Below are positions 11,239 to 64,000 of a stretch of DNA of 64,000 bases, piece after piece. The translations under genes were made by a program, and so were the position numbers. Every line of letters starts with the position of its first letter. Positions within the stretch are counted from its first letter, which is position 1. This DNA comes from Nanobdellati archaeon. Lineage in GTDB: Archaea > B1Sed10-29 > JAGVWA01. A model generated the notes under the pieces. That model ran no database searches. It was not told the origin of the DNA and was given only the letters and a program-made list of their open reading frames with translations. Location of the stretch: NCBI GenBank assembly GCA_018304505.1, contig JAGVWA010000001.1, positions 1,537 through 65,536 of the forward strand, read 5' to 3'.

Positions 11239-11407
11239 ACCTATTATTTACACAAACAGGTATTTAAAACACAACGCAATAAGTGAAAATACCCGTCTCA
11301 TTCAATCGGCTATAATCCATAGCAGCAATGTATAAGTACCATGCCGTGCAGAACTAATGCCAAGAACTAACATAACGCTTACTTTCGAAAAAAGGAGGAT
11401 GAACAAA

Positions 11408-12968: not shown

Positions 12969-12975
12969 TAAAAAA

Positions 12976-27003: not shown

Positions 27004-27053
27004 TTCTAGAAATCAGGCGTCTTTTAAATACATTGCCATATACAATTAGTTGC

Positions 27054-27599
27054 ATGGTATTACTGGAAGGAAAAGGGGGCCTAGAGCTCGGAGACGAGAT
27101 ACCACAATTCAATTTGAAGAACATCGACAATTCACTGCTGTCTAGCGATTCCCTAAAGAAGCAAGTGAAGCTAATCGTTTTCACGTGCAACCACTGCCCA
27201 TATGCGCAAGCAGGGTGGCCAAAATTAGTCCACATATACTCGAAATTCAAGGACAGGGTCGACTTCGTGGCGATCAACAGCAACGACGCGGTCAATTACC
27301 CAGAAGACAGTTTTGAAAACATGAAACCGTTTGCACAAGAACACAGCATACCTTTTCCGTACCTGCACGACGAAACCCAGGAAGTCGCAAAAGCGTATGG
27401 GGCAAAGTGCACGCCAGACGTGTACGTTTTCCACAATGACACATTGCAGTACAGGGGCAGAATCGATTCACAGTTCGACGCTCCATATTCAGAGACAGAA
27501 CATGACCTCGAAAACGCACTGCAGGAAATCACACAAACAGGAAAGTTCACAGGCACATCAAAACCATCAATGGGTTGCTCGATAAAATGGAAGACATAA
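27054..27599 (+). CDS. thioredoxin-fold redoxin (AhpC/TSA-like thiol-disulfide oxidoreductase)
   Basis: VKLIVFTCNHCPYAQAGWP supplies a CxxC in a thioredoxin-fold context. Confidence 0.6.
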   Translation: MVLLEGKGGLELGDEIPQFNLKNIDNSLLSSDSLKKQVKLIVFTCNHCPYAQAGWPKLVHIYSKFKDRVDFVAINSNDAVNYPEDSFENMKPFAQEHSIPFPYLHDETQEVAKAYGAKCTPDVYVFHNDTLQYRGRIDSQFDAPYSETEHDLENALQEITQTGKFTGTSKPSMGCSIKWKT

Positions 27600-27907
27600 C
27601 AATATCCCCTTACGACGTAAAGGAAAAAATCCACAACGAGGAAGACGTTCTATTGCTCGATGTTAGGGAACCCGGCGAGTTTAAGACTGCCCAGATACAC
27701 GGAGCAAAACTTATTCCGCTCAAGGAACTATCCCTACGCACAGGCGAGCTGCCAAAAGACGCCGAGATAATTGCATACTGCCACCACGGCGTAAGGAGCT
27801 TGCAAGCAGCACACCTGCTCACAAGTAAAGGCTTCAACGCGAAATCGATGGCGGGCGGCATTGATTCCTGGAGTCAACAAATCGACGGGCATGTACCGCG
27901 ATACTAA
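27587..27907 (+). CDS. rhodanese-domain sulfurtransferase
   Basis: Active-site loop YCHHGVRS (Cys-x-x-G-x-R) and a typical ~100-aa rhodanese length. Confidence 0.8.
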   Translation: MEDITISPYDVKEKIHNEEDVLLLDVREPGEFKTAQIHGAKLIPLKELSLRTGELPKDAEIIAYCHHGVRSLQAAHLLTSKGFNAKSMAGGIDSWSQQIDGHVPRY

Positions 27908-47136: not shown

Positions 47137-48468
47137 ATGAATTATGAAAGCATGGCGGGCTACGAAGACTTCATAAACACGAAATACAAACCCAAAAGCA
47201 CTGACTTGCTGGTGTCTTTCAAAGTGAAAATACCTAAAGGCGTGAAGAAAGAAAAGGCCATCGGCGCAGTGGCGTCAGAAAGCAGTGTAGGAACATGGGC
47301 CAGCACAGTAAAGGGATCAGAGTACTCGCACGTGAAAAAGGTCGCCGGCACAGTATATTTTGTAACGCAGGAATCTCCAACATCGTACTGGACAAAAATC
47401 GCATATCCACAAGACCACTTCGAGCCAGGAAACATGTCGCAAATCCTCGCGTCCATTGCAGGCAACGTTTTCGGCATGAAGGCAGTCGACGGCCTCCGTA
47501 TAGAGGACATCAAATGGCCAGCCAAAATCAGGGACAGTTTTCCAGGACCACAGTTTGGCATTGACGGAATAAGGAAGATCTTCAAAGTGAAAAAACGTCC
47601 TTTGCTATTATCAGTGCCAAAACCAAAAGTCGGAATGACAACTCCAGAACACTGCGAAATCGGCAGGCAGATTTGGAGCGGTGGAATTGATCTGTTAAAG
47701 GATGATGAAAATTTATCATCGCAGAAATTCAACCCATTCGAAAAGCGAGTAAGAACGGCAGTGAAAATAAGGGACAGGATAGAAAAAGAAACAGGTGACA
47801 AGAAGTCATATTTGATAAACATTACTCATTCAAGCTACAAGGAAATGGAGAAACGCGCCAAGCTCATTGCAGACCTCGGCTGGGAATACGTCATGATCGA
47901 CATAGTAACAACCGGATTCTCTGGAGTGCACAGCGTACGCGAGTTATGCCAAGACCTGGGCTTGGCGATCCATGCCCACAGAGCAATGCACGCCAGCTTC
48001 ACTAGAAACCCGGACCATGGTTTTTCAATGCTTGCACTGGCAGAGACTTCCAGACTCTTGGGCGTTGACAACATACACATTGGAACGGCAGGCGTTGGAA
48101 AACTTGTTGGGACAAGCGACGAAGTTTTATCCATCCAAGATCACATTACAGGAAAGAAAGTGAAAGAAAACAAGAAACTCCGGACACTCGGAGAGGATTG
48201 GGGAAGGATAAAACCCGTATTCCCTGTATCCTCAGGAGGCTTACATCCTGGAGTACTGCCTGATGTCATGAAGAAAATGGGGACAAACATAATGATACAG
48301 GCCGGAGGGGGTATCCATGGGCACCCTGGCGGCAGCCATGCAGGCGCAATCGCTGTACGTCAAGCCGTTGAAGCATACCTTGATGGAGAAACACTTGACG
48401 AGCGCGCTCGCAAGGTTCCAGAGTTACAACAGGCATTAACGCTCTGGGGAAAGAAGCACATAAAGTGA
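47137..48468 (+). CDS. rbcL: ribulose-1,5-bisphosphate carboxylase large subunit, form III
   Basis: RuBisCO large-chain motifs (GGIDLLKDDENL, GxDxxKxDE). Sits in an AMP-salvage operon. TATA tttaaata at 47121; a leaderless start at 47152 is an alternative. Confidence 0.9.
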   Translation: MNYESMAGYEDFINTKYKPKSTDLLVSFKVKIPKGVKKEKAIGAVASESSVGTWASTVKGSEYSHVKKVAGTVYFVTQESPTSYWTKIAYPQDHFEPGNMSQILASIAGNVFGMKAVDGLRIEDIKWPAKIRDSFPGPQFGIDGIRKIFKVKKRPLLLSVPKPKVGMTTPEHCEIGRQIWSGGIDLLKDDENLSSQKFNPFEKRVRTAVKIRDRIEKETGDKKSYLINITHSSYKEMEKRAKLIADLGWEYVMIDIVTTGFSGVHSVRELCQDLGLAIHAHRAMHASFTRNPDHGFSMLALAETSRLLGVDNIHIGTAGVGKLVGTSDEVLSIQDHITGKKVKENKKLRTLGEDWGRIKPVFPVSSGGLHPGVLPDVMKKMGTNIMIQAGGGIHGHPGGSHAGAIAVRQAVEAYLDGETLDERARKVPELQQALTLWGKKHIK

Positions 48469-49310
48469 AACCGATGGGCATTGACGCTAATGTAAACAAG
48501 GCCTGCAGGCAAATATCTAGGCTAGAAATCCAAGGCGCGACCAACACTGCACTGTACGCACTGGCCAGCCTGAAAAAAGCCAAATTCACAAATTTGAAAT
48601 CCAACGTCAGGGCATTGCGGAAAACACGGCCAACTGAACCCCTGATGCTTAACGGCCTCGCTTACATTTCACAAGGCAGTTCACAAAAGGAAGTGACAGA
48701 ACTCGCCGACAAGTACAAAATCCTTATTGAAAAATCACACGCAGGGATCGCAAAGCACGGACAGAAAATCGTTAACAGAAAACACACCGTGCTGACGCAC
48801 TGCCACTCTTCTACAGTCGAAGCCATCCTTAAGACGGCAAAACCACGCGCTGTGATAGCAACTGAGACGCGTCCATTATACCAGGGCCACATAACCGCAA
48901 GAAACCTTGCGAAACACAAAATCAATGTAACGCAGGTAGTAGACTCTGCAGCAAACGCCATGATGAAAAATGCCGATGTTGTCATTGTAGGGTGTGACGC
49001 GATAACCAAAAACGCTAGCCTGATAAATAAGATCGGAACCTCCGGTGTTGCCTTGAGTGCCGGGGAACACGGCGTACCGTTTTACGCTGCCACATCACTG
49101 TTGAAATACGACTTGCGAAACGTTCCGATAGAATACCGCGACCCGCGTGAAGTATGGGCAAACCCACCGCGGGGGGTAAAGATCCTGAATCCCTCATTTG
49201 ACATAACTGAGTCAAAATTCATCACAAGCTTTATTACCGAAAAGGGATTACTTAAACCAAGGCAAGTCCCTAAAATGGCAATGAAAACATACCCGTGGAT
49301 AATTAGGTAG
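48465..49310 (+). CDS. ribose-1,5-bisphosphate isomerase (eIF-2B alpha/beta/delta-like)
   Basis: eIF2B-like fold, located between RuBisCO III and AMP phosphorylase. Confidence 0.8.
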   Translation: MKPMGIDANVNKACRQISRLEIQGATNTALYALASLKKAKFTNLKSNVRALRKTRPTEPLMLNGLAYISQGSSQKEVTELADKYKILIEKSHAGIAKHGQKIVNRKHTVLTHCHSSTVEAILKTAKPRAVIATETRPLYQGHITARNLAKHKINVTQVVDSAANAMMKNADVVIVGCDAITKNASLINKIGTSGVALSAGEHGVPFYAATSLLKYDLRNVPIEYRDPREVWANPPRGVKILNPSFDITESKFITSFITEKGLLKPRQVPKMAMKTYPWIIR

Positions 49311-49316
49311 ATAAAA

Positions 49317-49610
49317 ATGATGGAAAGGCACATTGTTGAAACGAAAAAAGGCGCGGCCTTGGGCTTTAAATTCAAAATGAACAAGCTGCCATTCATGATG
49401 GTAGTAGCAGATAAGGGTTACATGGTAGCGAACTACTTCGACCAGAAGGTGCTGGAGAAAGTCAACGACTCAGCCGTACTGTTCACAAACGTAAAAAGCT
49501 TCCCGGAAATGCTCAGAGCCAAGCCCGCGTACGTGTCGAAGAAGGCCCAGAAGCTCGGAATAAAGAAAACCATGACTGGCAAACAGGTTCTGGACGAATT
49601 CATTGACTAA
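49317..49610 (+). CDS. hypothetical small protein within AMP-salvage operon
   Basis: 97-aa ORF tightly packed between the isomerase and AMP phosphorylase genes. Confidence 0.4.
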   Translation: MMERHIVETKKGAALGFKFKMNKLPFMMVVADKGYMVANYFDQKVLEKVNDSAVLFTNVKSFPEMLRAKPAYVSKKAQKLGIKKTMTGKQVLDEFID

Positions 49611-49629
49611 TAAAACTGAGTGAAAGAAC

Positions 49630-51165
49630 ATGGAAGTGAAGCTCAAGCCTAAGTTCATTGATTTGGAGAGCGGCGGAAAAAACATCGTGATAATCAACAC
49701 TGAGGACGCGAAGGACATAGACGTGAGCGCCCTCGACAGGGTTTACGTACGCGCAAACGGCAAGAAAGTGACTGCACTCGTAGATACAAGTTCTACCATG
49801 GCGAAGCAGAACGAAATCGGGTTATTCAAGGAAGTCCAAAAAGAACTGCACCTAACAAAAGAACCGCAAAGCCTCTCAATCGAAAAAATCGATAAACCAA
49901 AGTCTGTCTACCTCATCAGGAAGAAAATGGACAAGGTCCCATTGAAACAGCCAGAAATCGAGAGCATCATCGAGGATGTAATGAATGACAACTTATCTGA
50001 AATAGAACTGACGGCCTTCGTAACGGCAGTATACATTAACGGCTTGAACGAAGAAGAGACCCTTGCACTAACTAACGAAATAATCAAATCCGGCAGGACC
50101 CTCCACTTTCCAAAAAAGGTTGTCCTTGACAAGCACTCTATCGGCGGCGTTCCCGGAAACAGGACAACCATGCTGCTGGTGCCGATTATCGCCAGTGCTG
50201 GGTTGACGATTCCAAAAACCTCATCGCGAGCCATAACCAGCCCCGCAGGAACAGCAGACGTCATGGAAGTCCTGGCGCCAGTAAACCTGACTGAAAAACA
50301 GATCATAGACACCATAAACAAAACAAATGGCTGCATCGTCTGGGGCGGCTCAATGAACCTTGCAGCTGCTGATGACAAACTCATCAAAGTTCGTCATCCC
50401 CTAAGTTTGGATCCGCACGGCATGCTGCTTGCCTCGATACTGGCGAAAAAGAAAGCAGTAGGCTCAACGCACGTGCTCATCGATATCTCTATTGGAAAAG
50501 GTGCAAAGATATTCCTGAAGCAGGACGCTGAGAAGCTCGCTGACGAATTTATTAGGTATGGGAACCTGCTGAACATGAACGTCGAGTGCATAATAACACC
50601 AGGTTACGATCCAATAGGGCAAGCCATTGGGCCAGCACTTGAGGCCCGCGAGATCCTTAGGATTCTTGAAGGCGAAAACGTCTCGCCTGAGCTGAAAGAA
50701 AAGGGAATAGCAATGGCCGGCCTGATGTTGGAAATGGCCGGGCGCGCAAAACACGGCGAAGGCGAGGCAACCGCACGATCAATCATCGACTCTGGAAAAG
50801 CGTTAGAAAAAATGAAAGAAATAATTAAAGCCCAGGGTGGGGACCCTAGTGTTAGTTCAAAAGGCATAAGGATCGGCAAGAAATCCATGACGATAAAAGC
50901 AACGCAAGCTGGCAGGATTCATTACATGAACACACGTGACTTGTCAACTATTGCGCGGGCTGCTGGGGCTCCAAAAGACATAGGCGCTGGAATTTACTTG
51001 TACGTTGAAAAGGGTGACAAAATAACTAAAGGCCAAAACATATTCACGATTTACGCAGAAAGCGACAGCAAACTAAAGGCTGCAGAGGAATTGATTGACA
51101 AACTGCAACCTGTAGAACTGGAAAAAACCATAATCGGTACTGTATTCAGCAAACACAAAAGCTGA
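49630..51165 (+). CDS. AMP phosphorylase (thymidine phosphorylase family)
   Basis: N-terminal extension plus the glycosyltransferase family 3 core (SIGGVPGNRTTMLLVPI). Confidence 0.85.
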   Translation: MEVKLKPKFIDLESGGKNIVIINTEDAKDIDVSALDRVYVRANGKKVTALVDTSSTMAKQNEIGLFKEVQKELHLTKEPQSLSIEKIDKPKSVYLIRKKMDKVPLKQPEIESIIEDVMNDNLSEIELTAFVTAVYINGLNEEETLALTNEIIKSGRTLHFPKKVVLDKHSIGGVPGNRTTMLLVPIIASAGLTIPKTSSRAITSPAGTADVMEVLAPVNLTEKQIIDTINKTNGCIVWGGSMNLAAADDKLIKVRHPLSLDPHGMLLASILAKKKAVGSTHVLIDISIGKGAKIFLKQDAEKLADEFIRYGNLLNMNVECIITPGYDPIGQAIGPALEAREILRILEGENVSPELKEKGIAMAGLMLEMAGRAKHGEGEATARSIIDSGKALEKMKEIIKAQGGDPSVSSKGIRIGKKSMTIKATQAGRIHYMNTRDLSTIARAAGAPKDIGAGIYLYVEKGDKITKGQNIFTIYAESDSKLKAAEELIDKLQPVELEKTIIGTVFSKHKS

Positions 51166-53514: not shown

Positions 53515-53592
53515 AGCCTAATCAATCCCTCGAATAATAAATAACCTATGGTACACGCAACTTTTTTAAATAACTGACGAATAACACCACTA

Positions 53593-54144
53593 ATGAAAGT
53601 AATGAAAGGTTTATTGTTACTGCTTCTTGTGCTGTTAGCCGTGGCTGCGGGATGCGTGCAACCCGCAAGCACCCAAAAAACAGCTCCTGGCGACAACATT
53701 AGCTACGGCCCTGATAACTGGCGGAACATCGAAGTCACTGATGTCACTACTGGAGAAACATTCACGCTGAGCGACTTCAGTGGCCAATACTTGCTCATCG
53801 AAACCTTCGCAGTGTGGTGCCCAACCTGCCTAAGCCAACAGATAGAAATCGCGAAGATGCGGCAAAGCAGTGATGATCCGGCATTGCATTTTTCGCTTGA
53901 CGTTGACCCAAGCGAAGACGAGAACCGAGTTAGGGAACACCTGGAGAGGTATAGCTTTGACTGGGTTTTCGTTGTAGCTCCAAGGGAAATGTCGCAGTCA
54001 CTTGTTGACGAATTCGGCGTAACTATCGTTAATGCACCAAGCGCCCCAATGATCCTAATGTGCCCTGACGGATCTGCACGGCTCTTGAGAACCGGCGTGA
54101 AGCCAGCAGGCGAACTGGCAAGCGAAATAGAAAAAGGCTGCTGA
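53593..54144 (+). CDS. TlpA/ResA-like thioredoxin lipoprotein
   Basis: Lipobox LLAVAAGC, then thioredoxin fold with WCPTC. Confidence 0.7.
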   Translation: MKVMKGLLLLLLVLLAVAAGCVQPASTQKTAPGDNISYGPDNWRNIEVTDVTTGETFTLSDFSGQYLLIETFAVWCPTCLSQQIEIAKMRQSSDDPALHFSLDVDPSEDENRVREHLERYSFDWVFVVAPREMSQSLVDEFGVTIVNAPSAPMILMCPDGSARLLRTGVKPAGELASEIEKGC

Positions 54145-54154
54145 TGATGATATC

Positions 54155-54832
54155 ATGGTGAATTTTTTAGTTGACATAACGACATCATTCATACTGGGCT
54201 TGCTGACGCCAACAACAGCAGCATGTGTATTACCATTGTATCCTGGATTCCTGGTTTATTTAACAGCGGCGCTTGGCGAGAAGTCAAACAAAAAACGGCT
54301 GGCCACCTTTGGCTTGGTCATCAGCAGCGGCGTTGTTGTGTTCATGCTTCTCCTTGGCCTGATTTTCAGCACCATTCTCCAAGTTTCACTAACAAACGTC
54401 ATAGGCATCGTGTCGCCCATCGCGTTCTTTATCCTACTAATAATTAGCCTGTTGCTGATTTTCGACATCGACATTGGCAGCAAGTTGCCGAGAATCGCTA
54501 CGCCAAGAACCAAAAATCCATTAGCACATGCTTTCATTTATGGTTTCTTTTTCGGCGCCATTGTCGTGCCATGCAATCCGGCTTTCATCGCAGCAATGCT
54601 AGCCCGGACTGCAGCTGTAATGAACTTTATCGCCAATGTATTCAACTTCTTGGCTTTTGGGGTTGGAATGGCTGCGCCCCTAATAGCGTTTTCCCTGCTA
54701 TCAACAACAAAAACGCAATCGATAATAACCTTCTTGGCAAAGAACACGCGCAAGATAAACTTAGCGTCAGGTTTAATAATGCTCGGCGTTTCTGTTTACT
54801 ACCTGGTATTCGTATTCCGTGTGCTTGGGTAA
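54155..54832 (+). CDS. ccdA: CcdA/DsbD-family membrane protein
   Basis: TM-embedded Cys motifs AACVLPLYPGF and VVPCNPAFIAAML. Confidence 0.7.
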   Translation: MVNFLVDITTSFILGLLTPTTAACVLPLYPGFLVYLTAALGEKSNKKRLATFGLVISSGVVVFMLLLGLIFSTILQVSLTNVIGIVSPIAFFILLIISLLLIFDIDIGSKLPRIATPRTKNPLAHAFIYGFFFGAIVVPCNPAFIAAMLARTAAVMNFIANVFNFLAFGVGMAAPLIAFSLLSTTKTQSIITFLAKNTRKINLASGLIMLGVSVYYLVFVFRVLG

Positions 54833-54850
54833 TAATTATAGGGGGATAAC

Positions 54851-55231
54851 ATGAATTTAATGAAACAGTATGAAGACACATCGAAAAAAATCTCGCGGGA
54901 GAGCTACAGGCTCCTGATTAGCGGAAAATTCATCGCAGTATTCGCCATCGGCGCAATGCTGAGCAGGCAACTGTTCCTGTACGCGTATTTCATAATGATG
55001 GCGTCAGTGCTTCTCGTTTTGGCTTACACGCAGATCAGCCTTGTACATTGGCATGGAAATCAAAAAACGCCATACAAGACGCATGTGATAGGCAGCCTCG
55101 GTGCCATGTTGCTTGTGCTATTCTTCGGAATCCAATCTCCACAAATGCCCTACCCGATATATGTCCTCCTGCTAGGGGTTCTATTCGGCATTCCCGCGTT
55201 ACGCGACATTCTAAACCGGAGTAAAAAATGA
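54851..55231 (+). CDS. hypothetical membrane protein
   Basis: Four predicted TM helices. Confidence 0.35.
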   Translation: MNLMKQYEDTSKKISRESYRLLISGKFIAVFAIGAMLSRQLFLYAYFIMMASVLLVLAYTQISLVHWHGNQKTPYKTHVIGSLGAMLLVLFFGIQSPQMPYPIYVLLLGVLFGIPALRDILNRSKK

Positions 55232-56280
55232 AAGCATGGATACTACTCACTATTATCCTGCTATCGTCGGCTTGCGTAGCTCCAACAACGGGAGAACCGA
55301 CCTACCCAAGCTTGCCTGAAGGCATACCCCCCGTGTTTGACAATGACATAAGCACGCCGGGAGACGTTGACATGCCGACAGACACGTCAATTATGAATGA
55401 GCGCGTAAGGCAAGACGAAATCAAGATCACGGGGCGCGGAGTAAAATACTTAATCGAGCCGAGCAAAATCATGAGCGGCGGGCCACCAAAAGACGGCATA
55501 CCAAGCATTGACAACCCGAAGTTCATCTCGGTGGAAGAAGCAGACAAATGGATACAAGACAACGAACTGATACTCGCAATCATACACAAAGGCGTCACGC
55601 GGGTTTACCCGTTGCAGATACTGGTGTGGCATGAAATAGTCAATGACGAAATCGCCGGGGACCCATTGCTTATTACATACTGCCCGCTATGCGGCTCGGG
55701 AATCGCCTTTGAAGGGAAAATCGACGGCCAGCGCGTAGAGTTTGGCACATCTGGAAAATTGTACAACTCAAACCTGGTGATGTATGACCGGAAAACCGAT
55801 TCTTACTGGACACAAATAGATGGCCTAGCAGTCGTTGGGCCATTGGCAGGGACGAAATTAAAACCAGTATCCATAGACACGGTTTCATGGCGAGACTGGA
55901 AAGCCGCACACCCAGATTCACAGGTGTTATCACAAGACACTGGCCACGCACGGCCATATGGCGTCGATCCTTACGGCAACTACTATGAAGACAGCTTCTT
56001 GCTGTTTCCAGTCGAGAACTCTGACGACCGGATACACCCAAAGACCCAAGTATTCGGAATCGAAATAAACGGTGTATACAAGGCTTACAAGGAAGACGAC
56101 TTAAAAGAACTTGGAACAATTACCGACAGGGTAAACAACGTCAACATCAAACTAGAAAGAATGAGCGATGGCAGGGTCAGCGTAACCAATACAGACGCGG
56201 GCGAGGAGATTGTGAAAGAAGTTGACTTCTGGTTCGCGTGGTACGCCTTCCACCCAACAACAGGACTATACGAAAGGTGA
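55228..56280 (+). CDS. DUF3179-family lipoprotein with CxxC motif
   Basis: Lipobox LLSSAC; DGIPSIDNPKF...ITYCPLCGSGIAF. Confidence 0.6.
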   Translation: MKAWILLTIILLSSACVAPTTGEPTYPSLPEGIPPVFDNDISTPGDVDMPTDTSIMNERVRQDEIKITGRGVKYLIEPSKIMSGGPPKDGIPSIDNPKFISVEEADKWIQDNELILAIIHKGVTRVYPLQILVWHEIVNDEIAGDPLLITYCPLCGSGIAFEGKIDGQRVEFGTSGKLYNSNLVMYDRKTDSYWTQIDGLAVVGPLAGTKLKPVSIDTVSWRDWKAAHPDSQVLSQDTGHARPYGVDPYGNYYEDSFLLFPVENSDDRIHPKTQVFGIEINGVYKAYKEDDLKELGTITDRVNNVNIKLERMSDGRVSVTNTDAGEEIVKEVDFWFAWYAFHPTTGLYER

Positions 56281-56285
56281 TTTGG

Positions 56286-57050
56286 ATGACAAAGAAAATT
56301 CAACAAAAGCGCGATCAAAAAAAGCGAGACTGGAACCTATTCATTAACAGCATGTTCTTCGTCTTAGGCTTCTCAGTAATATTCTCCATACTCGGCGTGT
56401 TGCTACAGAGCACGCTTTCAAGCGCGTCTTACGAAATCCAACTCTGGCTTGGCCGCATCGGAGGCACTGTAATCATCTTGTTCGGCATCTACCTACTCGG
56501 ATTAATCCGAATTCCATTACTTGAACAGGAACACAAGTTCCAGATCAAAAGAAAATTCAAGTATTCCTACCTAACGAGTTTTGTTTTCGGCGCAGCATTC
56601 GCCGTGGGCTGGACACCATGCGTCGGGCCGATACTCGGCGCGATCCTGGGCTTGGCAGTAACGCAACCAGGAACAGCATTCTTGCTAATGCTTTCCTATT
56701 CATTGGGCTTAGGAATCCCATTCCTCGTCGTAGGCTTGTTTGGGGATGAAGCAAAACGATTTGTGCAAACACCACCAAGGTGGCTCGGATACCTTAACAC
56801 CGTATTCGCCATATTATTGATACTGTTAGGCATTCTGGTTTTCACGAACATGCTCAATCTAATTGCGAGTTTTCCGTTGGCTTCCAAAATCCTCTTAGAC
56901 CTTCAAGTCGCAACAGCTGTCACGTCTAGCACTTTGAACATTGGCATTGCCTTCTTTGCTGGCCTTGTATCATTCTTGAGCCCCTGCGTTCTACCGTTAA
57001 TTCCAGCATTCCTAGCCTACTTGGCAAGCACTGGTGCGAAAAAACGATGA
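56286..57050 (+). CDS. ccdA: CcdA/DsbD-family membrane protein (second copy)
   Basis: Motifs WTPCVGPILGAIL and FLSPCVLPLIPAFLAYL. Confidence 0.75.
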   Translation: MTKKIQQKRDQKKRDWNLFINSMFFVLGFSVIFSILGVLLQSTLSSASYEIQLWLGRIGGTVIILFGIYLLGLIRIPLLEQEHKFQIKRKFKYSYLTSFVFGAAFAVGWTPCVGPILGAILGLAVTQPGTAFLLMLSYSLGLGIPFLVVGLFGDEAKRFVQTPPRWLGYLNTVFAILLILLGILVFTNMLNLIASFPLASKILLDLQVATAVTSSTLNIGIAFFAGLVSFLSPCVLPLIPAFLAYLASTGAKKR

Positions 57051-58150
57051 TAAGCGACACAGTTAAATTGGCATTCATAGTTATCCTCATAATCGGAACT
57101 ATATCCTACTTAGAAGCAACAAAATCTAAGATCGTTCCAATAACAGCAATCGGCCCAGACGGGGGAGATTTGTTGAAAGAAATGATGTACAAAAAAGCGC
57201 CCGAACTGGTTGGCATTTCAGGTTACCTCAACACAGACGAAAAAGAAATCAAAATTAGCGACTACAAAGGAAAAGTAGTACTGATCGACTTCTGGACTTA
57301 CACATGCATTAACTGCATCCGGACACTGCCGCACTTGACAGAGTGGGACCGCAAGTATCGTGACCAAGGACTCGTCATCATTGGAGTGCATACGCCAGAA
57401 TTCGCGTTCGAGAAAATCCGCGAGAATGTTGAAAACGCTATACATGAACACAACATAGAATACGCTGTGGTGCAAGACAACGACTATGCTACGTGGAGGG
57501 CCTTCCAGAACAGGTTCTGGCCGCACAAGTTCCTGATAGACAAAGACGGCTTCATTCGTTATGACCACATTGGCGAGGGAGCCTATGAAGAAACCGAAAG
57601 ACAAATCCAGTTGCTGTTATCCGAAACAGGGGCAGAAACAGAAGGCATGAATCTAACGGGTCTGAAAGACGAGACCCCCCGCGTGCTATTGACCCCTGAA
57701 TTGTATGCAGGCTACAATTTCGCTATCCCACGGGGGCAAAACATTGGCAATCCAGGGGGCATGAAGCCCGGACAAACAATAAAGTACGAACTGCCTGCCA
57801 CGGTAAGGAAAGACATTATTTACTTAAAAGGAACGTGGCTCAGCAATCCAGATGACCTACATGCCCAGGATTCAGAAGGTGCCGAGATCGTACTTGATTT
57901 TACTGCCAGCAAAGTCAACATAGTAGCAGATTCTGTAAACGGCCCGCTCGAATTAGAAGTACTCATCAACGACGCGCCTGCAACACAAACACAACTCGGT
58001 AGCGACGTGCAAATCATTGGCGGCAAGGCCATCATGACCGTTGACAGACCCAGATTATACAACGTCATCAACGGAGAATATGGAAACTACAAACTGACAC
58101 TGAGGGCAACTAACACGAACTTTATTTTCAGCGCCTTCACGTTCGGGTAA
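57047..58150 (+). CDS. membrane-anchored thioredoxin-like protein (TlpA-like) with C-terminal extra domain
   Basis: N-terminal TM, then LIDFWTYTCINCIRTLP (CxxC) in a thioredoxin fold. Confidence 0.7.
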   Translation: MISDTVKLAFIVILIIGTISYLEATKSKIVPITAIGPDGGDLLKEMMYKKAPELVGISGYLNTDEKEIKISDYKGKVVLIDFWTYTCINCIRTLPHLTEWDRKYRDQGLVIIGVHTPEFAFEKIRENVENAIHEHNIEYAVVQDNDYATWRAFQNRFWPHKFLIDKDGFIRYDHIGEGAYEETERQIQLLLSETGAETEGMNLTGLKDETPRVLLTPELYAGYNFAIPRGQNIGNPGGMKPGQTIKYELPATVRKDIIYLKGTWLSNPDDLHAQDSEGAEIVLDFTASKVNIVADSVNGPLELEVLINDAPATQTQLGSDVQIIGGKAIMTVDRPRLYNVINGEYGNYKLTLRATNTNFIFSAFTFG

Positions 58151-58174
58151 ATTACTTATACAACAACACACATA

Positions 58175-58630
58175 ATGAAGAGCATGAAGCTAACAAGCAA
58201 CGCGTTTCAACACAACGGAAACATTCCGGAAAAATACACCTGCGAAGGCGCCAACGTGTCTCCGCAACTCGAAATCTCGCAAGTGCCGGAAAACACAAAG
58301 ACTCTGGCGCTGATTATGGACGACCCTGACGCCCCTGCGGGCACGTGGGACCACTGGGTATTGTTCAATATGCCAGCAAACACAACCTCAATACCAGAAG
58401 GCACCGAGCCACAAGGCATTCCTGGCAAGAACTCATGGGGAAAAACCGGCTACGGAGGGCCATGCCCACCAGACAGGGAACACAGGTACTTCTTCAAGCT
58501 CTACGCACTAGACGCTGAACTTGACTTGCATAATGGGACCGCAAAATCGCAGTTAGAACGCTCAATGCAAGGCCACATACTCACAAAGACAGAACTGATT
58601 GGCAAGTACAACAAGAAAGCTAATAGATGA
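58175..58630 (+). CDS. YbhB/YbcL-family PEBP (Raf kinase inhibitor-like) protein
   Basis: DDPDAPAGTWDHWVLFNMP...HRYFFKLYALD matches the PEBP signature. Confidence 0.85.
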   Translation: MKSMKLTSNAFQHNGNIPEKYTCEGANVSPQLEISQVPENTKTLALIMDDPDAPAGTWDHWVLFNMPANTTSIPEGTEPQGIPGKNSWGKTGYGGPCPPDREHRYFFKLYALDAELDLHNGTAKSQLERSMQGHILTKTELIGKYNKKANR

Positions 58631-59694
58631 CTTACCGAAATGATCAAATGAACAAGACAATTAGCGTCCTCGCGCTTCTACTGCTTGCACTGGTTTTTCT
58701 GGTGCTTCCAAAGCCGGTCCAGGAAAAGGGTTTCGAAACGCAAGTAGTGCTTGAAAGCCTAGACACTGTCTGGAGCATCGATTTTCTTCCAGATGACACG
58801 ATGATTTTCACAGAGCGCCCGGGCCGAGTCAACTTGTACGACATGCGCGAGAAGAAAATCATTGCCACAATCCAAATCAAGGAGACCGCAGAATCCGGCT
58901 TGCACGGAGTCGCTGTTGACCCAGAGCACAGTGAAAACCGCCACATATACCTCTATTACGGCTACGACGACAACAGGGGAGTGACGAACCGGGTTTCACG
59001 ATACACATTAAACAACAATGAACTTCTTGATGAAACCATTCTCGTTGACGGCATTCCGGGCGCGCAGATTCACGACGGGGGCCGTTTGAAGTTTGGGCCT
59101 GACGGCAAGCTCTACGTAACAACTGGCGATGCAGGCATTCCTGATTTGGCGCAGGACACAAATTCAGTAGCGGGAAAAGTACTGCGGATGAACAAAGACG
59201 GCAGTGTGCCTGAAGACAATCCATTTGGAAACTTAGTCTGGAGTTACGGCCACAGGAACCCACAGGGCATTGCGTTTCACCCCACAACCGGAATCTTGTT
59301 TGAGTCAGAGCACGGGCCATCAATGCACGACGAAGTCAACATCATACAGCCAGGGAGAAATTACGGTTGGCCAACCACGTGCGGCAATGAATTGCCTGGA
59401 CACGAGAAACCGATAGCTTGTTACCCTGACTTCACTATCGCGCCTGGGAGCATAGCGATTTTCGATAAATTTATTTTCATTCCAGGGCTACGGGGAAACC
59501 AGCTGCGTAAATTGGCCCTGGCTGATGACTACAAAACCGTTATCAGTGAAGAGGCGTTGTTTACTGACATCGGCCGGGTCAGGGAGGCGACGGTGCACGA
59601 TGGCTACTTGTACATTGGAACCAGCAACCGTGATGGCAGGGGCCTGCCTCAGCTGAACGACGACAAAATAATAAGAATTAGAATAATAGACTAA
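58627..59694 (+). CDS. PQQ-dependent soluble sugar (aldose) dehydrogenase family protein
   Basis: Beta-propeller motifs LHGVAVDPEH, GGRLKFGPDGKLYVTTGD and SYGHRNPQGIAFHP; N-terminal TM. Confidence 0.8.
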   Translation: MTYRNDQMNKTISVLALLLLALVFLVLPKPVQEKGFETQVVLESLDTVWSIDFLPDDTMIFTERPGRVNLYDMREKKIIATIQIKETAESGLHGVAVDPEHSENRHIYLYYGYDDNRGVTNRVSRYTLNNNELLDETILVDGIPGAQIHDGGRLKFGPDGKLYVTTGDAGIPDLAQDTNSVAGKVLRMNKDGSVPEDNPFGNLVWSYGHRNPQGIAFHPTTGILFESEHGPSMHDEVNIIQPGRNYGWPTTCGNELPGHEKPIACYPDFTIAPGSIAIFDKFIFIPGLRGNQLRKLALADDYKTVISEEALFTDIGRVREATVHDGYLYIGTSNRDGRGLPQLNDDKIIRIRIID

Positions 59695-59705: not shown

Positions 59706-60305
59706 TCAGCAAAACGAGCTGCCACAGCCGCATGTTGCCCTTGCGTTGGGGTTGCTGAACTTAAAGCCGCTCTCATTCAGGCCGTCTACGTAGTCTACCG
59801 TGACGCCTTTCAACAGGTCGAAGCTATACGGGTTCACGAATATTTTTAGGCCGTCTCGTTCTAGCACCGTGTCACCATCTGCTGGTTTTTCTTCAAATTC
59901 CATTATGTATGACAAACCTGAGCAGCCCCCGGCATGCACGCCGACCCTGAGTCCATGGTCTGCTTTTCCTTCAGATTCAAGTAGGGCCTTAACCTTGGAA
60001 ATGGCCTTTGGCGTTAATGTAACCTCTGCTAGTTGTTCTTGTTCGTTTTGTTCACCCACATCTGTTGACACGATAGCGTTGAGGTCCATGACCAGCGAGT
60101 CGAGATGGTCATTTGTCATGCCATGACCAAGGACACCTTCTTCAAGCGTTTCGAAAACCGCGGCACCGCAGCCCACACAGTGCAGGCCTGCGTTGGTCAT
60201 AGTTTCCGCGAGTTCCATTACCTTGTCTGGATGTGATTCCAGAATTGTGGCTATGGTCATCTTTGGATCGATTTTTTGAATTTGATTTTGAACTTCAGTA
60301 GACAT
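59706..60305 (-). CDS. DUF1858 redox domain fused to HesB/IscA-type Fe-S cluster insertion protein
   Basis: N-terminal ...GLHCVGCG..., C-terminal ...VHAGGCSGLSY...ATCGCGSSFC (IscA CGCG motif). Confidence 0.7.
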   Translation of the reverse strand: MSTEVQNQIQKIDPKMTIATILESHPDKVMELAETMTNAGLHCVGCGAAVFETLEEGVLGHGMTNDHLDSLVMDLNAIVSTDVGEQNEQEQLAEVTLTPKAISKVKALLESEGKADHGLRVGVHAGGCSGLSYIMEFEEKPADGDTVLERDGLKIFVNPYSFDLLKGVTVDYVDGLNESGFKFSNPNARATCGCGSSFC

Positions 60306-60384: not shown

Positions 60385-62058
60385 TTAATACCCTGGTCTC
60401 TTTTGCGTTATCTTCGCAAACAACCAGATTACGCCTACGAGGAAAACCAGCATGAAAATTAAGAATGACAGGGAGGGTAAGCCTTCTATCCTGGGCACAA
60501 CCCCCGAATCAACGATGAGCGCTGCTGCTATGATAAGGCTTGCAATGATGACTGAGAATGAAACGTCGCTGCTAGATCGCTCGATGCTTGAGGCCATTGA
60601 CTCAAGTCCTCGGTGTTCAAACTCAATCGGAATTACGCCTTCACTAAGGCGCTCTGTGATCCTATCAAAGCGCTTTGGCAAGATGCGGAGAAGCTGCGTT
60701 GTGTCCAACAGGGTCTCACGGCCGATTTCGACAAGCTGCTCTGCAGTCACGCGGCTCCTAAGAGCTTTTATGAAATATGATTTTGATGCACGAGTAAAAT
60801 TGAAACCCGGGTCTATCTCCCTGCCAAGACCCTCGATTTCCACCACGGTCTTGAAGAGGATTGAGAATTCCGGCGGAAGTACCATGTTGAACTTTTCTAT
60901 CATTTCTTGAACTTCCTGCATAAACTCATTTAGCGGAACCTCTTTTAGTGAGACGTCATAGAAGTTCTCAACAAGATCTGAAAGTTCACGCCGTATTTCT
61001 TGCGGCTTTGCGTCTGCGGGCAGCGCGGCAATCGTCATTATTTCCGTGACCGCCTTGTCAACGTCCCTGGCCGTGACTGCATATAGCAGCCTTGATAGCG
61101 ATTTCCTAGCTTGAGGGCCGATTGTGCCTACCAAGCCAAAGTCTATAATGCCGATCTTGTCAGCGCCTATGATAAACAGGTTCCCGGCGTGGGGGTCTGC
61201 CTGGAACAAACCGTCTTCGAAGATTTGCTTCAGGTATATCGCGGTTCCCTTTCGCGCGATCTTCTCCCGTGTTTTTTTCGATACGCGTTTTTTCATCCAT
61301 TGCGTTAGCGGTGTTCCGTGGATTTTGTTCAGCGTGAGAACCTTTCTTGTTGTATAATCCCAGTGCACGTCTGGTATTACCACGTCCTTATCGCCCTTGA
61401 AGTTTTCCCTGAAACGGGTGTACATCCTTGCTTCTCTTAACAAGTTAGTTTCTTTTGATACTGCCCGGGAGTACTCTGCAAGGATGTTGGACAAGTTGAT
61501 TTTCTTTGCCTCTGTTATTGTGGCTTCTGCTGTGCCTGCGAGAATCCTCAGGGCCTCAAGGTCGATTTTTATGTGCTCCTCAACATTTTTCCTGAGCACT
61601 TTTACAACAACACGGTCTCCTTCAAGCGTTTTTGCTTCATGGACCTGGCTTAGCGAAGCCGAAGCTATTGGCTGTTCATTGAATTCACGGAATACTTCAT
61701 TTAGGGGCATCTTGAATTCGGATTCAATTTGCGCTTTCACTTCGCTAAACGGCACCGCAGGGGCATGATCTACTAGTTTTGAGAATTCTTCTATGATGTC
61801 CCTTGGCAACAAATCAGGGCGAGTTGACAAAATTTGCCCGAACTTGATGTACAATGGACCAAGGTCTTCGAGAACACGGCGCGCCCTTACCCCCCTTGAG
61901 ACAACAAAGTCCTCTGGCATTTCGAGGCCCAGCCGCTCTTTTATCGGGATGTATTTGCCCAGGCGCATCTTCGTCAGTAAGAAGCCAAAGCCATGCTTAG
62001 CTAAAGTACTAACTACGTCGCTGTATCTCTGCAGTACCTGCTTTTCAGGTATGGCCAT
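60385..62058 (-). CDS. ABC1/UbiB (ADCK) atypical kinase family protein
   Basis: Motifs ASASLSQVHEA, ADPHAGNLFII and DFGLVG; C-terminal TM helices. Confidence 0.85.
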   Translation of the reverse strand: MAIPEKQVLQRYSDVVSTLAKHGFGFLLTKMRLGKYIPIKERLGLEMPEDFVVSRGVRARRVLEDLGPLYIKFGQILSTRPDLLPRDIIEEFSKLVDHAPAVPFSEVKAQIESEFKMPLNEVFREFNEQPIASASLSQVHEAKTLEGDRVVVKVLRKNVEEHIKIDLEALRILAGTAEATITEAKKINLSNILAEYSRAVSKETNLLREARMYTRFRENFKGDKDVVIPDVHWDYTTRKVLTLNKIHGTPLTQWMKKRVSKKTREKIARKGTAIYLKQIFEDGLFQADPHAGNLFIIGADKIGIIDFGLVGTIGPQARKSLSRLLYAVTARDVDKAVTEIMTIAALPADAKPQEIRRELSDLVENFYDVSLKEVPLNEFMQEVQEMIEKFNMVLPPEFSILFKTVVEIEGLGREIDPGFNFTRASKSYFIKALRSRVTAEQLVEIGRETLLDTTQLLRILPKRFDRITERLSEGVIPIEFEHRGLESMASSIERSSSDVSFSVIIASLIIAAALIVDSGVVPRIEGLPSLSFLIFMLVFLVGVIWLFAKITQKRPGY

Positions 62059-62064
62059 TAGAAT

Positions 62065-62451
62065 CTACTTCTTTCGCTTTGCCTGCTTCTTCGCCCTTGT
62101 GGCTTTCTTTGCTGCGGGTTTTCTATTTGCGGCTTTCTTTTTAGCTGCTGGCTTTGCCTTTGCTGCTTTTTTGACGTTCCTCGCTGACGTTCGGACTTGC
62201 TTCTGCATTGCCGTGAGTTCTTTTATCGATGTCGAAAGAACACTGTTGACCTTTATGTCGATTTTCTTTGCCTCTGCAGTCGTGTCTTTTATCAGCTTTG
62301 TTGCCAGCCTTTTGCCTTCCTTTTTGTCAAAGAAGCCTTCCTCTACAAGGAAGTCTGTATAGTCCTTGAAGAGATCCCTAGCGATTTCCACCATGCCCAT
62401 GGGTATGAGGATTGCTTTTTTTGCTGCGCTTGTCGATTTTTTTGCTGCCAT
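62065..62451 (-). CDS. Lys/Ala-rich phasin-like / histone-H1-like protein
   Basis: N-terminal helical domain, then an AKPAAKKK repeat tail; architecture resembles PHA-granule phasins (PhaF-like). Confidence 0.35.
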   Translation of the reverse strand: MAAKKSTSAAKKAILIPMGMVEIARDLFKDYTDFLVEEGFFDKKEGKRLATKLIKDTTAEAKKIDIKVNSVLSTSIKELTAMQKQVRTSARNVKKAAKAKPAAKKKAANRKPAAKKATRAKKQAKRKK

Positions 62452-62514
62452 TTTCTTTAATCACCTTTTGAGTATTAGTTACTGTTCTAAAAGAAATCGT
62501 TGTTTATAAAGGTG

Positions 62515-62555
62515 ATGCTAGGCAGCATCCTATTATATAATCTTAATTCCAGCGC
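62515..62555. repeat. cassette-boundary direct repeat R1 (tgctaggcagc-N20-ttccagcgcc)
   Basis: Read directly; shares 11-nt and 10-nt conserved arms with R2 and R3. Confidence 0.85.
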
Positions 62556-62592
62556 CGTAATTAATATTAAGCAATTAGAGTTTAATAGAAAT

Positions 62593-63267
62593 ATGTCTTA
62601 CAAAGAAATTGTTCTTGAGAGAATCAAAGCAGATAAAGACTTACGAGAAAAACTCAACGTAGTTAAGGAATTTTCTCAAAAAGAAGGAGTTTTAAACCCA
62701 ATAATTACAGCAGGATACATAAGAGACTTTATTCTTGATGGCCCCCAAGGAGACATTGATTTAGTTTATACTGGCAGCATGAAAGACAATGAAGCTTTGA
62801 AGATAATAAGAGATATCGAAAAAGAACAAGGACTTAAGGAAAGCGATTGGGAACCCACAAACCAGAATCATTGGGGCTATGGCCAAACCACAGAAGAGGG
62901 AATTGCATCCTTCATGCACTCCATTAACGCTGTTGGAATAACACACAATTATAAACTGATAGACCCAACCGGCAATGGATTGAGCGATATGGAAAACAAG
63001 ATACTCAGAGCAAATCAAACTAACCAAAAAAACGGAAGAACTGCCACGGTAGGACTTATTGGAATCAGACACATGGTTAACTATAGCCTAATGCCGGCAC
63101 CAGAAACAGAAGAAATAAACAAAGATGCCCACAATTACTGGAATTTATTATCAGAAGATGACAAAAGAAGCATCAAAGGCATCTATGAAAAAACTATAGA
63201 TAAAAACAAATTTGTTGAATTGCTCAAGAAATATAACTTTTACAACCTAGTTAAAAAATACTTATAG
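62593..63267 (+). CDS. class-II-CCA/poly(A) polymerase-like minimal nucleotidyltransferase (cassette 1)
   Basis: ITAGYIRDFILDGPQGDIDLVYTGS closely matches the PolyA_pol head motif GGAVRDxLLGxxxxDxDh. Low-GC codon usage. The track ORF start at 62500 would read through repeat R1, so ATG 62593 is chosen. Confidence 0.55.
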   Translation: MSYKEIVLERIKADKDLREKLNVVKEFSQKEGVLNPIITAGYIRDFILDGPQGDIDLVYTGSMKDNEALKIIRDIEKEQGLKESDWEPTNQNHWGYGQTTEEGIASFMHSINAVGITHNYKLIDPTGNGLSDMENKILRANQTNQKNGRTATVGLIGIRHMVNYSLMPAPETEEINKDAHNYWNLLSEDDKRSIKGIYEKTIDKNKFVELLKKYNFYNLVKKYL

Positions 63268-63310
63268 AAAAAATAGATATGGCGCCATTAAGGCGTATTT
63301 AGATAAAGAG

Positions 63311-63351
63311 TGCTAGGCAGCGTCGTGCCACTTGATCTCTATTCCAGCGCC
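63311..63351. repeat. cassette-boundary direct repeat R2
   Basis: tgctaggcagcgtcgtgccacttgatctctattccagcgcc; preceded by palindrome ATGGCGCCAT and followed by TATA tttatata (63371). Confidence 0.85.
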
Positions 63352-63412
63352 CCGCAAGTGCTGCAAAACATTTATATATTACATGGTATTATAAAGTATA
63401 ATGTGATGTTAT

Positions 63413-63646
63413 ATGGTACAAGTTATGGTAGAATTAACTGAACAGGCCAACAGAACTGTTGAAATAATCAAGGCGACCTACGGAATGAACAGCAAATCAG
63501 ATGTCATTGACATGATTATTGAGAAGTACGGAGAAAAAACCCTAGAACCTCAACTAAGGCCAGAATACATAGAGAAAATCAGAAAGATTAAAGCAGGCAA
63601 ATTCATAACAGTAAAGGACATCAATAAGTATTTTGATGAACTCTAA
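63413..63646 (+). CDS. putative antitoxin (RelB/DUF2683-like) of cassette 2
   Basis: 77-aa ORF immediately upstream of the RelE-like gene. An alternative start at 63425 is possible. Confidence 0.45.
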   Translation: MVQVMVELTEQANRTVEIIKATYGMNSKSDVIDMIIEKYGEKTLEPQLRPEYIEKIRKIKAGKFITVKDINKYFDEL

Positions 63647-63685
63647 GGAGCTGACTCTCTGTATACCCACAAACTTTCAGTTAAA

Positions 63686-63922
63686 GTGGACAAGGCCTTC
63701 AAAAAATATTTGAGGAAAGACCCCCTCCAAAAAGAAGCAGTACTCAAAAAAATTGAACAAATACTAAATAATCCCAGACAATACAAGCCACTCAAGTGGC
63801 CACAAGCAGGCGAACGCAGAGTTCACATAGGCTCGTTTGTTCTAACCTTTGAAATAATTGAAGAAGAAAAAGTAGTCAGACTCCTAGACTACGACCATCA
63901 CGACAAAATTTATAAGAAATAG
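63686..63922 (+). CDS. RelE/ParE-family toxin (cassette 2)
   Basis: ...LKWPQAGERRVHIGSFVLTFEIIEEEKVVRLLDYDHHDKIY matches the RelE core (RvGdyRiiYeIdee.k.v.il.v.hRk.iY). Confidence 0.7.
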   Translation: MDKAFKKYLRKDPLQKEAVLKKIEQILNNPRQYKPLKWPQAGERRVHIGSFVLTFEIIEEEKVVRLLDYDHHDKIYKK

Positions 63923-63959
63923 ATCAAGAGAGCCCCCTTCATTATTTCATAATGAAGGG

Positions 63960-64000
63960 TGCTAGGCAGCGTCCTGTTACATACTCTCTTTTCCAGCGTC
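63960..64000. repeat. cassette-boundary direct repeat R3 (runs to window end)
   Basis: tgctaggcagcgtcctgttacatactctcttttccagcgtc; preceded by hairpin ccttcattat-ttc-ataatgaagg (63936-63958). Confidence 0.85.

Follow-up and report, generated by a model that had tools for sequence, protein, structure and literature searches.

TlpA-type thiol reductants can be dedicated to one or a few clients. TlpA of Bradyrhizobium acts on ScoI and on the CuA site of CoxB, and in PilB of Neisseria a TlpA-like domain is fused to MsrA/B. DipZ of Mycobacterium tuberculosis is a single polypeptide in which the CcdA-like domain comes first. System II cytochrome c maturation has a thiol-reducing arm, CcdA or DipZ together with ResA/CcsX, that carries reductant through the membrane to an acceptor of the CxxC type (PMC3781833). 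In Streptococcus pneumoniae, the surface enzyme MsrAB2 is reduced by CcdA1-Etrx1 as well as by CcdA2-Etrx2, and it is encoded in a three-gene operon with one of these pairs (PMC3914529). The subject of this article is a locus of a Nanobdellati archaeon of the DPANN group (GenBank assembly GCA_018304505.1, contig JAGVWA010000001.1) in which two CcdA-type proteins, two TlpA/ResA-like proteins and a lipoprotein of the DUF3179 family are encoded within positions 53593-58150 of the 64,000-nucleotide stretch of DNA that was analyzed, here called the window. With a probability of about 0.65, we read these genes as encoding two relays that reduce disulfides outside the cytoplasm and do not depend on cytochrome c, the first (module 1, 53593-56280) dedicated to DUF3179 and the second (module 2, 56286-58150) representing a split DipZ.

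Among documented systems the pneumococcal one, CcdA1-Etrx1-MsrAB2 plus CcdA2-Etrx2, comes closest. Both have two CcdA proteins, each with a surface thioredoxin-fold protein, one of the pairs is in an operon with its presumed or known client, and no cytochrome c takes part. The pneumococcal Etrx-type structures 2yp6, 4hqz and 4hqs are among the PDB matches of both thioredoxin-fold proteins of the window. In contrast to the pneumococcal system, the client would be DUF3179 and not Msr, no Msr match above threshold having been found among the genes of the cluster; both pairs lie in what is likely one operon, and the host is an archaeon. The second CcdA of the window also differs in being permuted, and its partner in carrying the C-terminal domain of DipZ. 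The dedication of a TlpA-type reductant to one or a few clients recalls Bradyrhizobium TlpA and Neisseria PilB, and the logic of the PilB fusion resembles that of the Redoxin-DUF3179 fusions described below. The clients in those bacteria are, however, copper-site proteins or Msr enzymes, not DUF3179.

Module 1 and the linkage of DUF3179 to CcdA and TlpA-like proteins

The first gene of module 1 (53593-54144, + strand) encodes a TlpA/CcmG-like thioredoxin-fold lipoprotein of 183 amino acids. It matches Pfam Redoxin (30.2 bits against a cutoff of 26.6) and has the active site W-C76-P-T-C79 (WCPTC, residues 75-79). An N-terminal hydrophobic segment is followed by a lipobox-like AAGC, in which Cys21 is the putative lipidated residue. 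Against NCBIfam it scores 20.6 bits for ResA, where the cutoff is 170, and 19.9 bits for TlpA, where it is 230; both scores are below the equivalog level, and the protein is best described as a predicted member of the broad TlpA/ResA/CcmG-like family only. The second gene (54155-54832, +) encodes a CcdA of 225 amino acids with the canonical helix order, which matches Pfam DsbD_TM (PF02683) at 41.7 bits against 27.1 over profile positions 5-214 of 219. It has just two Cys, C24 in transmembrane helix (TM) 1 (ACVLP) and C140 in TM4 (VPCNP), each beside a Pro. Its role as a DsbD-type transmembrane thiol-disulfide electron transporter is predicted from the family. The third gene of the module (55228-56280, +) encodes the DUF3179 lipoprotein, with 350 amino acids, a lipobox Cys at position 16 and the motif C152-P-L-C155; it matches PF11376 at 330.9 bits against a cutoff of 27 and is 58-79% identical to many archaeal members of the family.

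DUF3179 is found in archaea and bacteria, with 10,215 representatives of 50% identity clusters at E<=1e-3. Gene neighborhoods were surveyed in one genome per species, giving 80 DUF3179 loci from very different lineages. The neighborhood profiles for CcdA and for thioredoxin-fold proteins were built from domain envelopes only, which kept the DUF3179 part of fusion proteins out. A sequence-only reading of the window had named DUF3179 itself among the possible substrates of the pathway, and had pointed to its co-occurrence with CcdA-TlpA pairs as a check. Of the 80 species-level loci, 24 have CcdA in the neighborhood of DUF3179, either as a gene or as a domain. CcdA, a TlpA-like gene or domain, or both are near DUF3179 in all six DPANN loci and in three of the five from Methanosarcinales. 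Among the candidate phyla radiation (CPR)/Patescibacteria, 13 of 16 loci are linked, 11 of them with CcdA, and two (L041 and L050) only with a TlpA-like gene on the same strand. The CcdA matches are close to DUF3179, 26 of 28 at no more than 2.5 kb and the other two at 2.5-5 kb, and all except two share its strand.

The arrangement seen in module 1 recurs. Redoxin (182-212 aa), DsbD_TM (221-233 aa) and DUF3179 genes follow one another in this order in four independent archaeal contigs. An ortholog of the TlpA-like protein occupies the equivalent position in L002-L005, L007 and L009-L020, and the placement of CcdA between the TlpA-like gene and DUF3179 is conserved in archaeal loci. Of the four contigs, three have module 1 but not the second CcdA and its partner (L002, which belongs to an Aenigmatarchaeota genome; L003; and L004/L005). 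A widely sampled contig from Woesearchaeota (L007) has all five redox genes in the order of the window. The order is TlpA-CcdA-DUF3179 in archaea and DUF3179-TlpA-CcdA in CPR, and the linkage has therefore been kept independently of gene order. Two loci depart from their taxonomic labels: L015, labelled Dehalococcoidaceae, has the archaeal-type TlpA-CcdA-DUF3179 arrangement with a DUF3179 that is 68% identical to the window protein, and L040, labelled Gammaproteobacteria, has the CPR-type arrangement. Their placement could result from horizontal transfer or from a binning error.

The same partners are also found joined to DUF3179 in single polypeptides. Among the best 150 of the 10,215 cluster representatives, approximately 25 have a TlpA-like domain, mostly N-terminal and in three cases C-terminal, and two have an N-terminal CcdA domain. 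Ten proteins are Redoxin+DUF3179 or DsbD_TM+DUF3179 fusions above the Pfam thresholds, including P0244, P0249, P0243, P0262 and one open reading frame (ORF) of L020 for the former, and P0286, P0359 and ORFs of L043 and L052 for the latter. The TlpA-like protein of the window matches the TlpA-like domains of such fusions directly (P0262, E 1e-38; P0243, E 3e-32). In the CcdA-DUF3179 fusions, DUF3179 takes the place that a thioredoxin-like domain has in DsbD and DipZ.

Since synteny recurs in two gene orders and DUF3179 is fused to both TlpA-like and CcdA domains, DUF3179 is predicted to be the dedicated partner of the module 1 reducing relay, and its candidacy as a substrate is now strongly supported. 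The grouping of these genes is non-random, because the trio or the quintet recurs in unrelated genomes and DUF3179 is fused to the domains of its neighbors. It could still be held that thiol-redox genes have come together here by chance or through loose co-regulation, and that the pairs are general surface reductases with DUF3179 as one client of many, or none. Module 2 does occur alone in L006, DUF3179 has neither partner in 50 of the 80 species-level loci, and the window encodes other thiol proteins, namely a peroxiredoxin, a rhodanese-linked AhpC-like protein and a thioredoxin. The linkage in two gene orders across archaea and bacteria, with nearly all CcdA matches within 2.5 kb, the independent fusions at either terminus of DUF3179, and the match of the window protein to fused domains at E 1e-38 nevertheless make such an explanation improbable.

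Genes related to oxidative stress or thiols recur near the cassette in other genomes; these encode thioredoxin-reductase-like proteins, glutaredoxin, rubrerythrin, desulfoferrodoxin, Ogg and DsbA. Such neighborhoods fit a protective or repair role.

Several other associations of DUF3179 were observed. In CPR loci L025, L027, L034, L037, L042, L046, L047 and L066 it belongs to a recurring group that encodes, besides TlpA (CPFC) and CcdA, a DsbA-like protein, a small glutaredoxin and a regulator of the ArsR family. The group frequently includes a class I pyridine-nucleotide disulfide oxidoreductase, which is sometimes fused to a VTT/DedA domain; in P0360, DUF3179 is itself fused to a VTT domain. 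Further fusion partners, seen in P0322, P0334, P0362, P0287 and P0021, are CarboxypepD_reg-like, NHL beta-propeller and cupredoxin domains. A stand-alone DUF1858 gene is found near DUF3179 in L004/L005. In 12 thaumarchaeal loci (L022-L048, for example L024:6014-6493, +), a Cys-rich membrane protein of about 160 amino acids directly abuts DUF3179 on the same strand. LGC and VPLGCCG(W/S)W motifs are conserved in this protein. The idea that it is a cryptic half-CcdA was rejected (hhalign probability 1%, and no Pfam match), and it may serve DUF3179 as a membrane thiol partner of another kind.

Sequence and predicted structure of DUF3179

The DUF3179 protein has a signal peptide, a tether of approximately 45 residues predicted with low confidence, and a folded domain at about residues 65-350. 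The AlphaFold2 model, like the residue conservation given below, is based on an alignment of 109 members; the mean predicted local distance difference test score (pLDDT) is 91.4, with values of at least 96 from residue 70 on. The domain is an internal tandem duplication, in which residues ~95-236 correspond to ~255-350 (hhalign probability 98.6%, E 6e-16). The CxxC is kept in the first repeat only, which is also longer by an insert of about 37 residues. Structure prediction around this motif had been suggested by the sequence-only reading; in the model C152-P-L-C155, which is encoded at nt 55681-55692 in the first repeat, lies with the following Gly in a turn between strands 145-152 and 157-162. 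Five polar residues of the first repeat, H135, E136, N139, D140 and Q196, are conserved in 107-108 of the 109 sequences. C152 is present in 104 and C155 in 100, and the CxxC is thus kept in 92-95% of the family.

No solved structure matches DUF3179 by sequence, and a Foldseek search of the model against the PDB gave nothing significant. The duplicated beta domain of the model may bear a weak similarity to the Rieske fold, which would be at the level of the fold only. DUF3179 differs from Rieske [2Fe-2S] domains in being tandem-duplicated and in lacking the CxH...CxxH ligands: C152 and C155 are the only Cys of the mature protein, and there is no His at the ligand positions. A profile comparison with the Rieske ferredoxin T4moC (1sjg_A) was insignificant (hhalign probability 0.2%). 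A match made by eye between H135...C152xxC155 and a Rieske CxH-(17)-CxxH pattern was dropped; the T4moC comparison placed C152-P-L on the C-P-H of box I, and the AlphaFold2 secondary structure, which has H135 at the end of a helix, also counters a role for this residue as a Rieske ligand.

No function of DUF3179 was found described in the open-access literature. Two reviews list it as a selenoprotein family, with UxxC/T at the position of CPLC (PMC9312934, PMC13188914), which points to chemistry at the first position of the motif. The DUF3179 client family, and its dedicated linkage to CcdA and TlpA in DPANN, CPR and methanogens, appear to be undescribed.

Module 2: the two halves of a DipZ, one of them a permuted CcdA

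The second CcdA (56286-57050, +) has 254 amino acids. Its ORF opens at a GTG at 56238, and AGGTGA is found 8 nt before the ATG at 56286. It matches DsbD_TM at 56.2 bits and DsbD_2 at 35.2 bits, the Pfam match being without profile positions 1-38. When it was compared by phmmer with the solved CcdA 5vkv_A (whole-sequence E 4e-35), residues 19-196 aligned with residues 40-209 of the chain (TM2-TM6), and residues 217-248 with residues 3-34 (TM1, SPCVLP), so that the helices depart from the canonical order. In common with canonical CcdA (5vkv) and the beta domain of DsbD there are six TM helices and two Cys in P-C motifs; unlike in 5vkv, TM1 comes after TM6 and not before TM2. As judged from these alignments the protein is a circularly permuted CcdA, with the order TM2-TM3-TM4-TM5-TM6-linker-TM1. 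It has exactly two Cys, C112 in WTPCVGP (canonical TM4) and C234 in SPCVLPLIP (canonical TM1, now the last helix).

The permuted motif order is common to 114 of the 120 closest homologs, most of which are from DPANN. Both Cys are invariant in these 114 proteins, and the typical member has exactly two. Permuted CcdA is also encoded in L010, L014 and L020 of Woesearchaeota and in L037 of CPR; in L020 it adjoins the TlpA-DUF3179 fusion. No description of a permuted CcdA or DsbD was found in open-access papers, and this form appears to be undescribed. In public databases some of the homologs are named "cytochrome c biogenesis protein" and others "sulfite exporter TauE/SafE", an inconsistency that is explained by the permutation.

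The gene that follows (57047-58150, +) encodes a protein of 367 amino acids with an N-terminal anchor. It has a TlpA/ResA-like domain with C87-I-N-C90 (in TYTCINC) and matches Pfam AhpC-TSA, Redoxin and Thioredoxin_10 (PF17991, 74.3 bits). Residues 50-318 align with the soluble domain of M. tuberculosis DipZ (2hyx/5cyy) at E 7e-55. Its additional C-terminal domain is by these matches the C-terminal domain of DipZ, and the two genes 56286-57050 and 57047-58150 therefore represent a split DipZ. They share with DipZ the thioredoxin and C-terminal domains, the (S/T)CINC site and the position of these domains right after a CcdA-type protein. They differ from it in that the halves are separate genes, the second starting at 57047 in a 4-nt overlap with the end of the permuted CcdA, that the thioredoxin half has its own anchor, and that the CcdA half is permuted and predicted to end in the cytoplasm. 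The thioredoxin+NHL proteins SOQ1 and NHLRC2 are also among the PDB matches of the DipZ-like protein.

Permutation would move the termini of CcdA from the outside to the cytoplasm, and the basic N- and C-terminal tails of the protein are consistent with this. We infer that, with these termini inside, the thioredoxin partner requires an anchor of its own and is encoded by a second gene, to which translation is coupled. A fused DipZ-like protein, encoded in L050, has the canonical order. The split pairing of permuted CcdA with a DipZ-C protein is also seen in L006, L007 and L008; the pair stands alone in L006 and beside module 1 in L007, L010 and L014.

The question of cytochrome c

The sequence-only reading had seen an extracytoplasmic thiol-reducing locus with no visible cytochrome c or cytochrome c maturation genes, and this has been borne out. 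No real ORF of the window contains CxxCH, the only two such strings being off-frame inside other genes. The WWD haem-handling motif of CcsA, CcmC and CcmF, sought with the pattern W[GAS]x[FYWLIVM]WxWD and with no profile search for ResB/CcsB, is absent from all frames of the window and of 87 related loci.

These results bear on the possibility that the cluster is an accessory locus of System II, in which CcdA and the TlpA/ResA-like proteins would reduce the CxxCH of apocytochrome and DUF3179 would be an unrelated neighbor. WCPTC is also the motif of CcmG. The homologs are annotated publicly as "cytochrome c biogenesis protein", and System II of Bacillus, Bordetella and Mycobacterium has CcdA, ResA/CcsX and DipZ for the reduction of thiols (PMC3781833). 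The window shares these families with System II but has neither WWD nor a CxxCH substrate, and the conserved third gene, the acceptor, is DUF3179, which is physically fused to TlpA-like and CcdA domains elsewhere. DPANN and CPR, the main carriers, generally lack respiratory chains. Cytochrome c-independent CcdA systems have, moreover, been documented (PMC3914529). On the evidence of the window and the 87 related loci, the cytochrome c reading is disfavored, and we regard it as highly improbable.

Organization of the locus

Six genes had been claimed for 53593-58150, and all are present there on the + strand and belong to the families proposed; the five redox genes all exceed the Pfam thresholds. 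Together with two further genes they form a run of eight co-oriented genes (53593-59694, +) with spacings of -4 to 24 nt between neighbors. Independently made public gene calls for the same stretch, on a metagenome contig in ENA, match the coordinates found here. Direct reading of the sequence reveals an archaeal TATA-box-like element, TTTTTTAAATA (53563-53573, +), approximately 20-30 nt 5' of the first ATG, which is likely the promoter of a leaderless or short-leader operon transcript. The run is ended by a convergent gene that begins at 59706. Because of the tight spacing, the TATA-like TTTTTTAAATA upstream and the convergent gene that closes the run, the eight genes are likely to form one operon. 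The Cys content of the redox proteins is minimal and confined to motifs: each CcdA has two, the DipZ-like protein has those of its CxxC and no others, and DUF3179 has the lipobox Cys and those of its CxxC. The locus had been described as one unusually dense cluster; it consists instead of two separable modules, each of which occurs without the other in other genomes.

Three genes of the run are not conserved with the cassette. Between CcdA and DUF3179 lies a gene (54851-55231, +) for a membrane protein of 126 amino acids with four hydrophobic segments, no Cys and no family; it gave only sub-threshold noise with Pfam and NCBIfam, and no homolog at E<=10 in the 87 other loci. Other cassettes have no gene at this position, and it appears to be a lineage-specific insertion and a passenger. 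The PEBP protein and the membrane-anchored PQQ-type dehydrogenase reported downstream were both found. The former (58175-58630, +; Pfam PBP 158.9 bits) belongs to the PEBP/YbhB family and has no signal peptide. The latter (58627-59694, +; Pfam GSDH 264 bits), the last gene of the run, encodes a sugar dehydrogenase of the GSDH/PQQ type that has Cys at 252 and 265 and a hydrophobic segment at its N terminus. Neither has a homolog in the 87 related loci. They were rejected as clients of the pathway because they are not conserved with the cassette, and the suggestion that the dehydrogenase might be its substrate is not upheld; there is no such conserved partner. The PEBP gene is probably co-transcribed with the redox genes, and both proteins are, by this distribution, apparent passengers.

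Some other features of the window were observed. Just upstream of the redox cluster, 47137-51165 holds an archaeal AMP salvage set, comprising a RuBisCO large-subunit homolog, an IF-2B-family protein (ribose-1,5-bisphosphate isomerase-like) and an AMP/thymidine phosphorylase-like protein. Downstream, the gene at 59706-60305 (-) encodes an IscA/HesB Fe-S assembly domain with an N-terminal DUF1858, the redox-disulfide domain of hybrid-cluster proteins (CVGC). At 27033-27907, inside a lipoate/2-oxoacid dehydrogenase group, the gene for an AhpC/TSA-like protein (CNHC) overlaps one for a single-domain rhodanese, which gives a further small pair of thiol/sulfur genes. A third CcdA/DsbD with a TRASH-like neighbor had been reported elsewhere in the window, and neither assignment was confirmed. 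The gene at 12240-12968 gives no DsbD_TM match, SfLAP at 34.2 bits (cutoff 35), a weak ArsG match and DsbD at E 0.036, and 12976-13773 matches neither TRASH nor any other family. The first encodes a membrane protein of 242 amino acids with NPC and LPC motifs in hydrophobic segments, and the second, which follows it, a secreted or anchored Cys-containing protein of 265 amino acids. The pair (12240-13773) closely follows the gene for a superoxide dismutase (11357-12007) and may be another, more divergent thiol transporter pair. Two stretches, 6001-8000 (0.35) and 62001-64000 (0.38), have a low G+C content compared with ~0.47 elsewhere, and the second holds a DUF2683/ParE-toxin-like pair (63413-63922). 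They are possibly acquired DNA.

Proposed mechanism

In the scheme proposed for module 1, cytoplasmic thioredoxin would reduce the two membrane-embedded Cys of CcdA; a CGPC thioredoxin is encoded in the window at 22150-22419. From what is known of the families, CcdA would pass electrons to the WCPTC of the TlpA-like lipoprotein, which would keep C152-P-L-C155 of DUF3179 reduced. The pairing of these proteins is shown by the synteny and the fusions. DUF3179 would be the terminal effector, most likely a reductase or repair enzyme that works through a thiol or selenol, with the first Cys performing the chemistry beside the conserved H-E-x-x-N-D/Q site. It would thereby take the place of MsrAB2 in the pneumococcal CcdA-Etrx system. 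In module 2, the permuted CcdA and the DipZ-C-like protein may either supply DUF3179 with electrons as a second input or reduce disulfides at the surface more generally. The repeated occurrence of module 2 beside module 1 in Woesearchaeota is compatible with a second input.

A number of points weigh against this scheme. CcdA is near DUF3179 in none of 13 thaumarchaeal loci and in none of 37 from Proteobacteria, Nitrospirota, Bacteroidota and others; in such unlinked lineages DUF3179 could rely on a general DsbD or another partner. The Cys are not invariant, CPLS, CPLT, SPLC and SPLT variants being found among the members. H135, E136, N139, D140 and Q196 are better conserved than the Cys, and for this reason the core function of DUF3179 may not be thiol chemistry. 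C-P-x-C-G in a beta-hairpin turn is a classic metal-binding knuckle of the rubredoxin or Rieske type. Finally, the direction of electron flow in the DUF3179 relay is assigned by analogy.

The knuckle leads to the main competing view of the protein, as one that binds or handles metal at the cell surface, with C152 and C155, and perhaps H135 or an acidic residue, as ligands of a metal such as Cu, Zn, Fe or Hg, and with the TlpA-like protein doing no more than keeping the ligand Cys reduced for loading of the site, as TlpA does for ScoI and the CuA site of CoxB in Bradyrhizobium. The cupredoxin domain fused to DUF3179 in P0021 would suit this view, as would the CPR neighborhoods with an ArsR-family regulator and MerA/GR/Lpd-type class I pyridine-nucleotide disulfide oxidoreductases, and an ArsR-like regulator and an HMA-type P-type ATPase that lie 3-6 kb away in L004/L005. 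UxxC selenoprotein forms are listed for metal-handling proteins as well (PMC9312934). DUF3179, however, has only two Cys and no Rieske CxH...CxxH pattern, and some members are without both Cys. The CxxS/T and UxxT variants (PMC9312934) are better suited to a single catalytic nucleophile than to a chelate. The metal-related neighbors are inconsistent across loci, and the fusion to CcdA puts DUF3179 where DsbD and DipZ hold a redox domain. We therefore consider a metal site unlikely.

As to the direction of flow, the pathway might instead be oxidative, the thioredoxin-fold proteins acting like DsbA and adding a structural disulfide to DUF3179 and other secreted proteins. Thioredoxin folds are able to work in both directions, and DsbA-like genes are found in some CPR neighborhoods and in L002. 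Against this, partners of the CcdA/DsbD_TM type are known only as importers of reductant, the thioredoxin-fold proteins of the window match the Redoxin/ResA/TlpA/DipZ families and not DsbA, and no DsbB or VKOR was found among the cluster genes examined. An oxidative pathway is scarcely credible on these grounds, and the reducing relays remain the preferred reading.

Significance

A broader proposal can be put forward tentatively, as something a little short of an even chance: that DUF3179 is an unrecognized class of extracytoplasmic thiol- or selenol-dependent enzyme, built on a duplicated Rieske-like beta domain and supplied by a dedicated CcdA/TlpA relay in DPANN, CPR and some methanogens, and that the second CcdA represents a family-wide circular permutation that is still functional. 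The permuted CcdA would be a natural experiment on the workings of the two inverted three-helix halves of a DsbD-type transporter. For DUF3179, a very large family, the relay would provide a testable context, that of a surface CxxC serviced by a dedicated reductase system with named partners. It would also indicate a role for cytochrome c-independent CcdA systems in DPANN and CPR, organisms that are hard to culture and whose surface biology is poorly understood.

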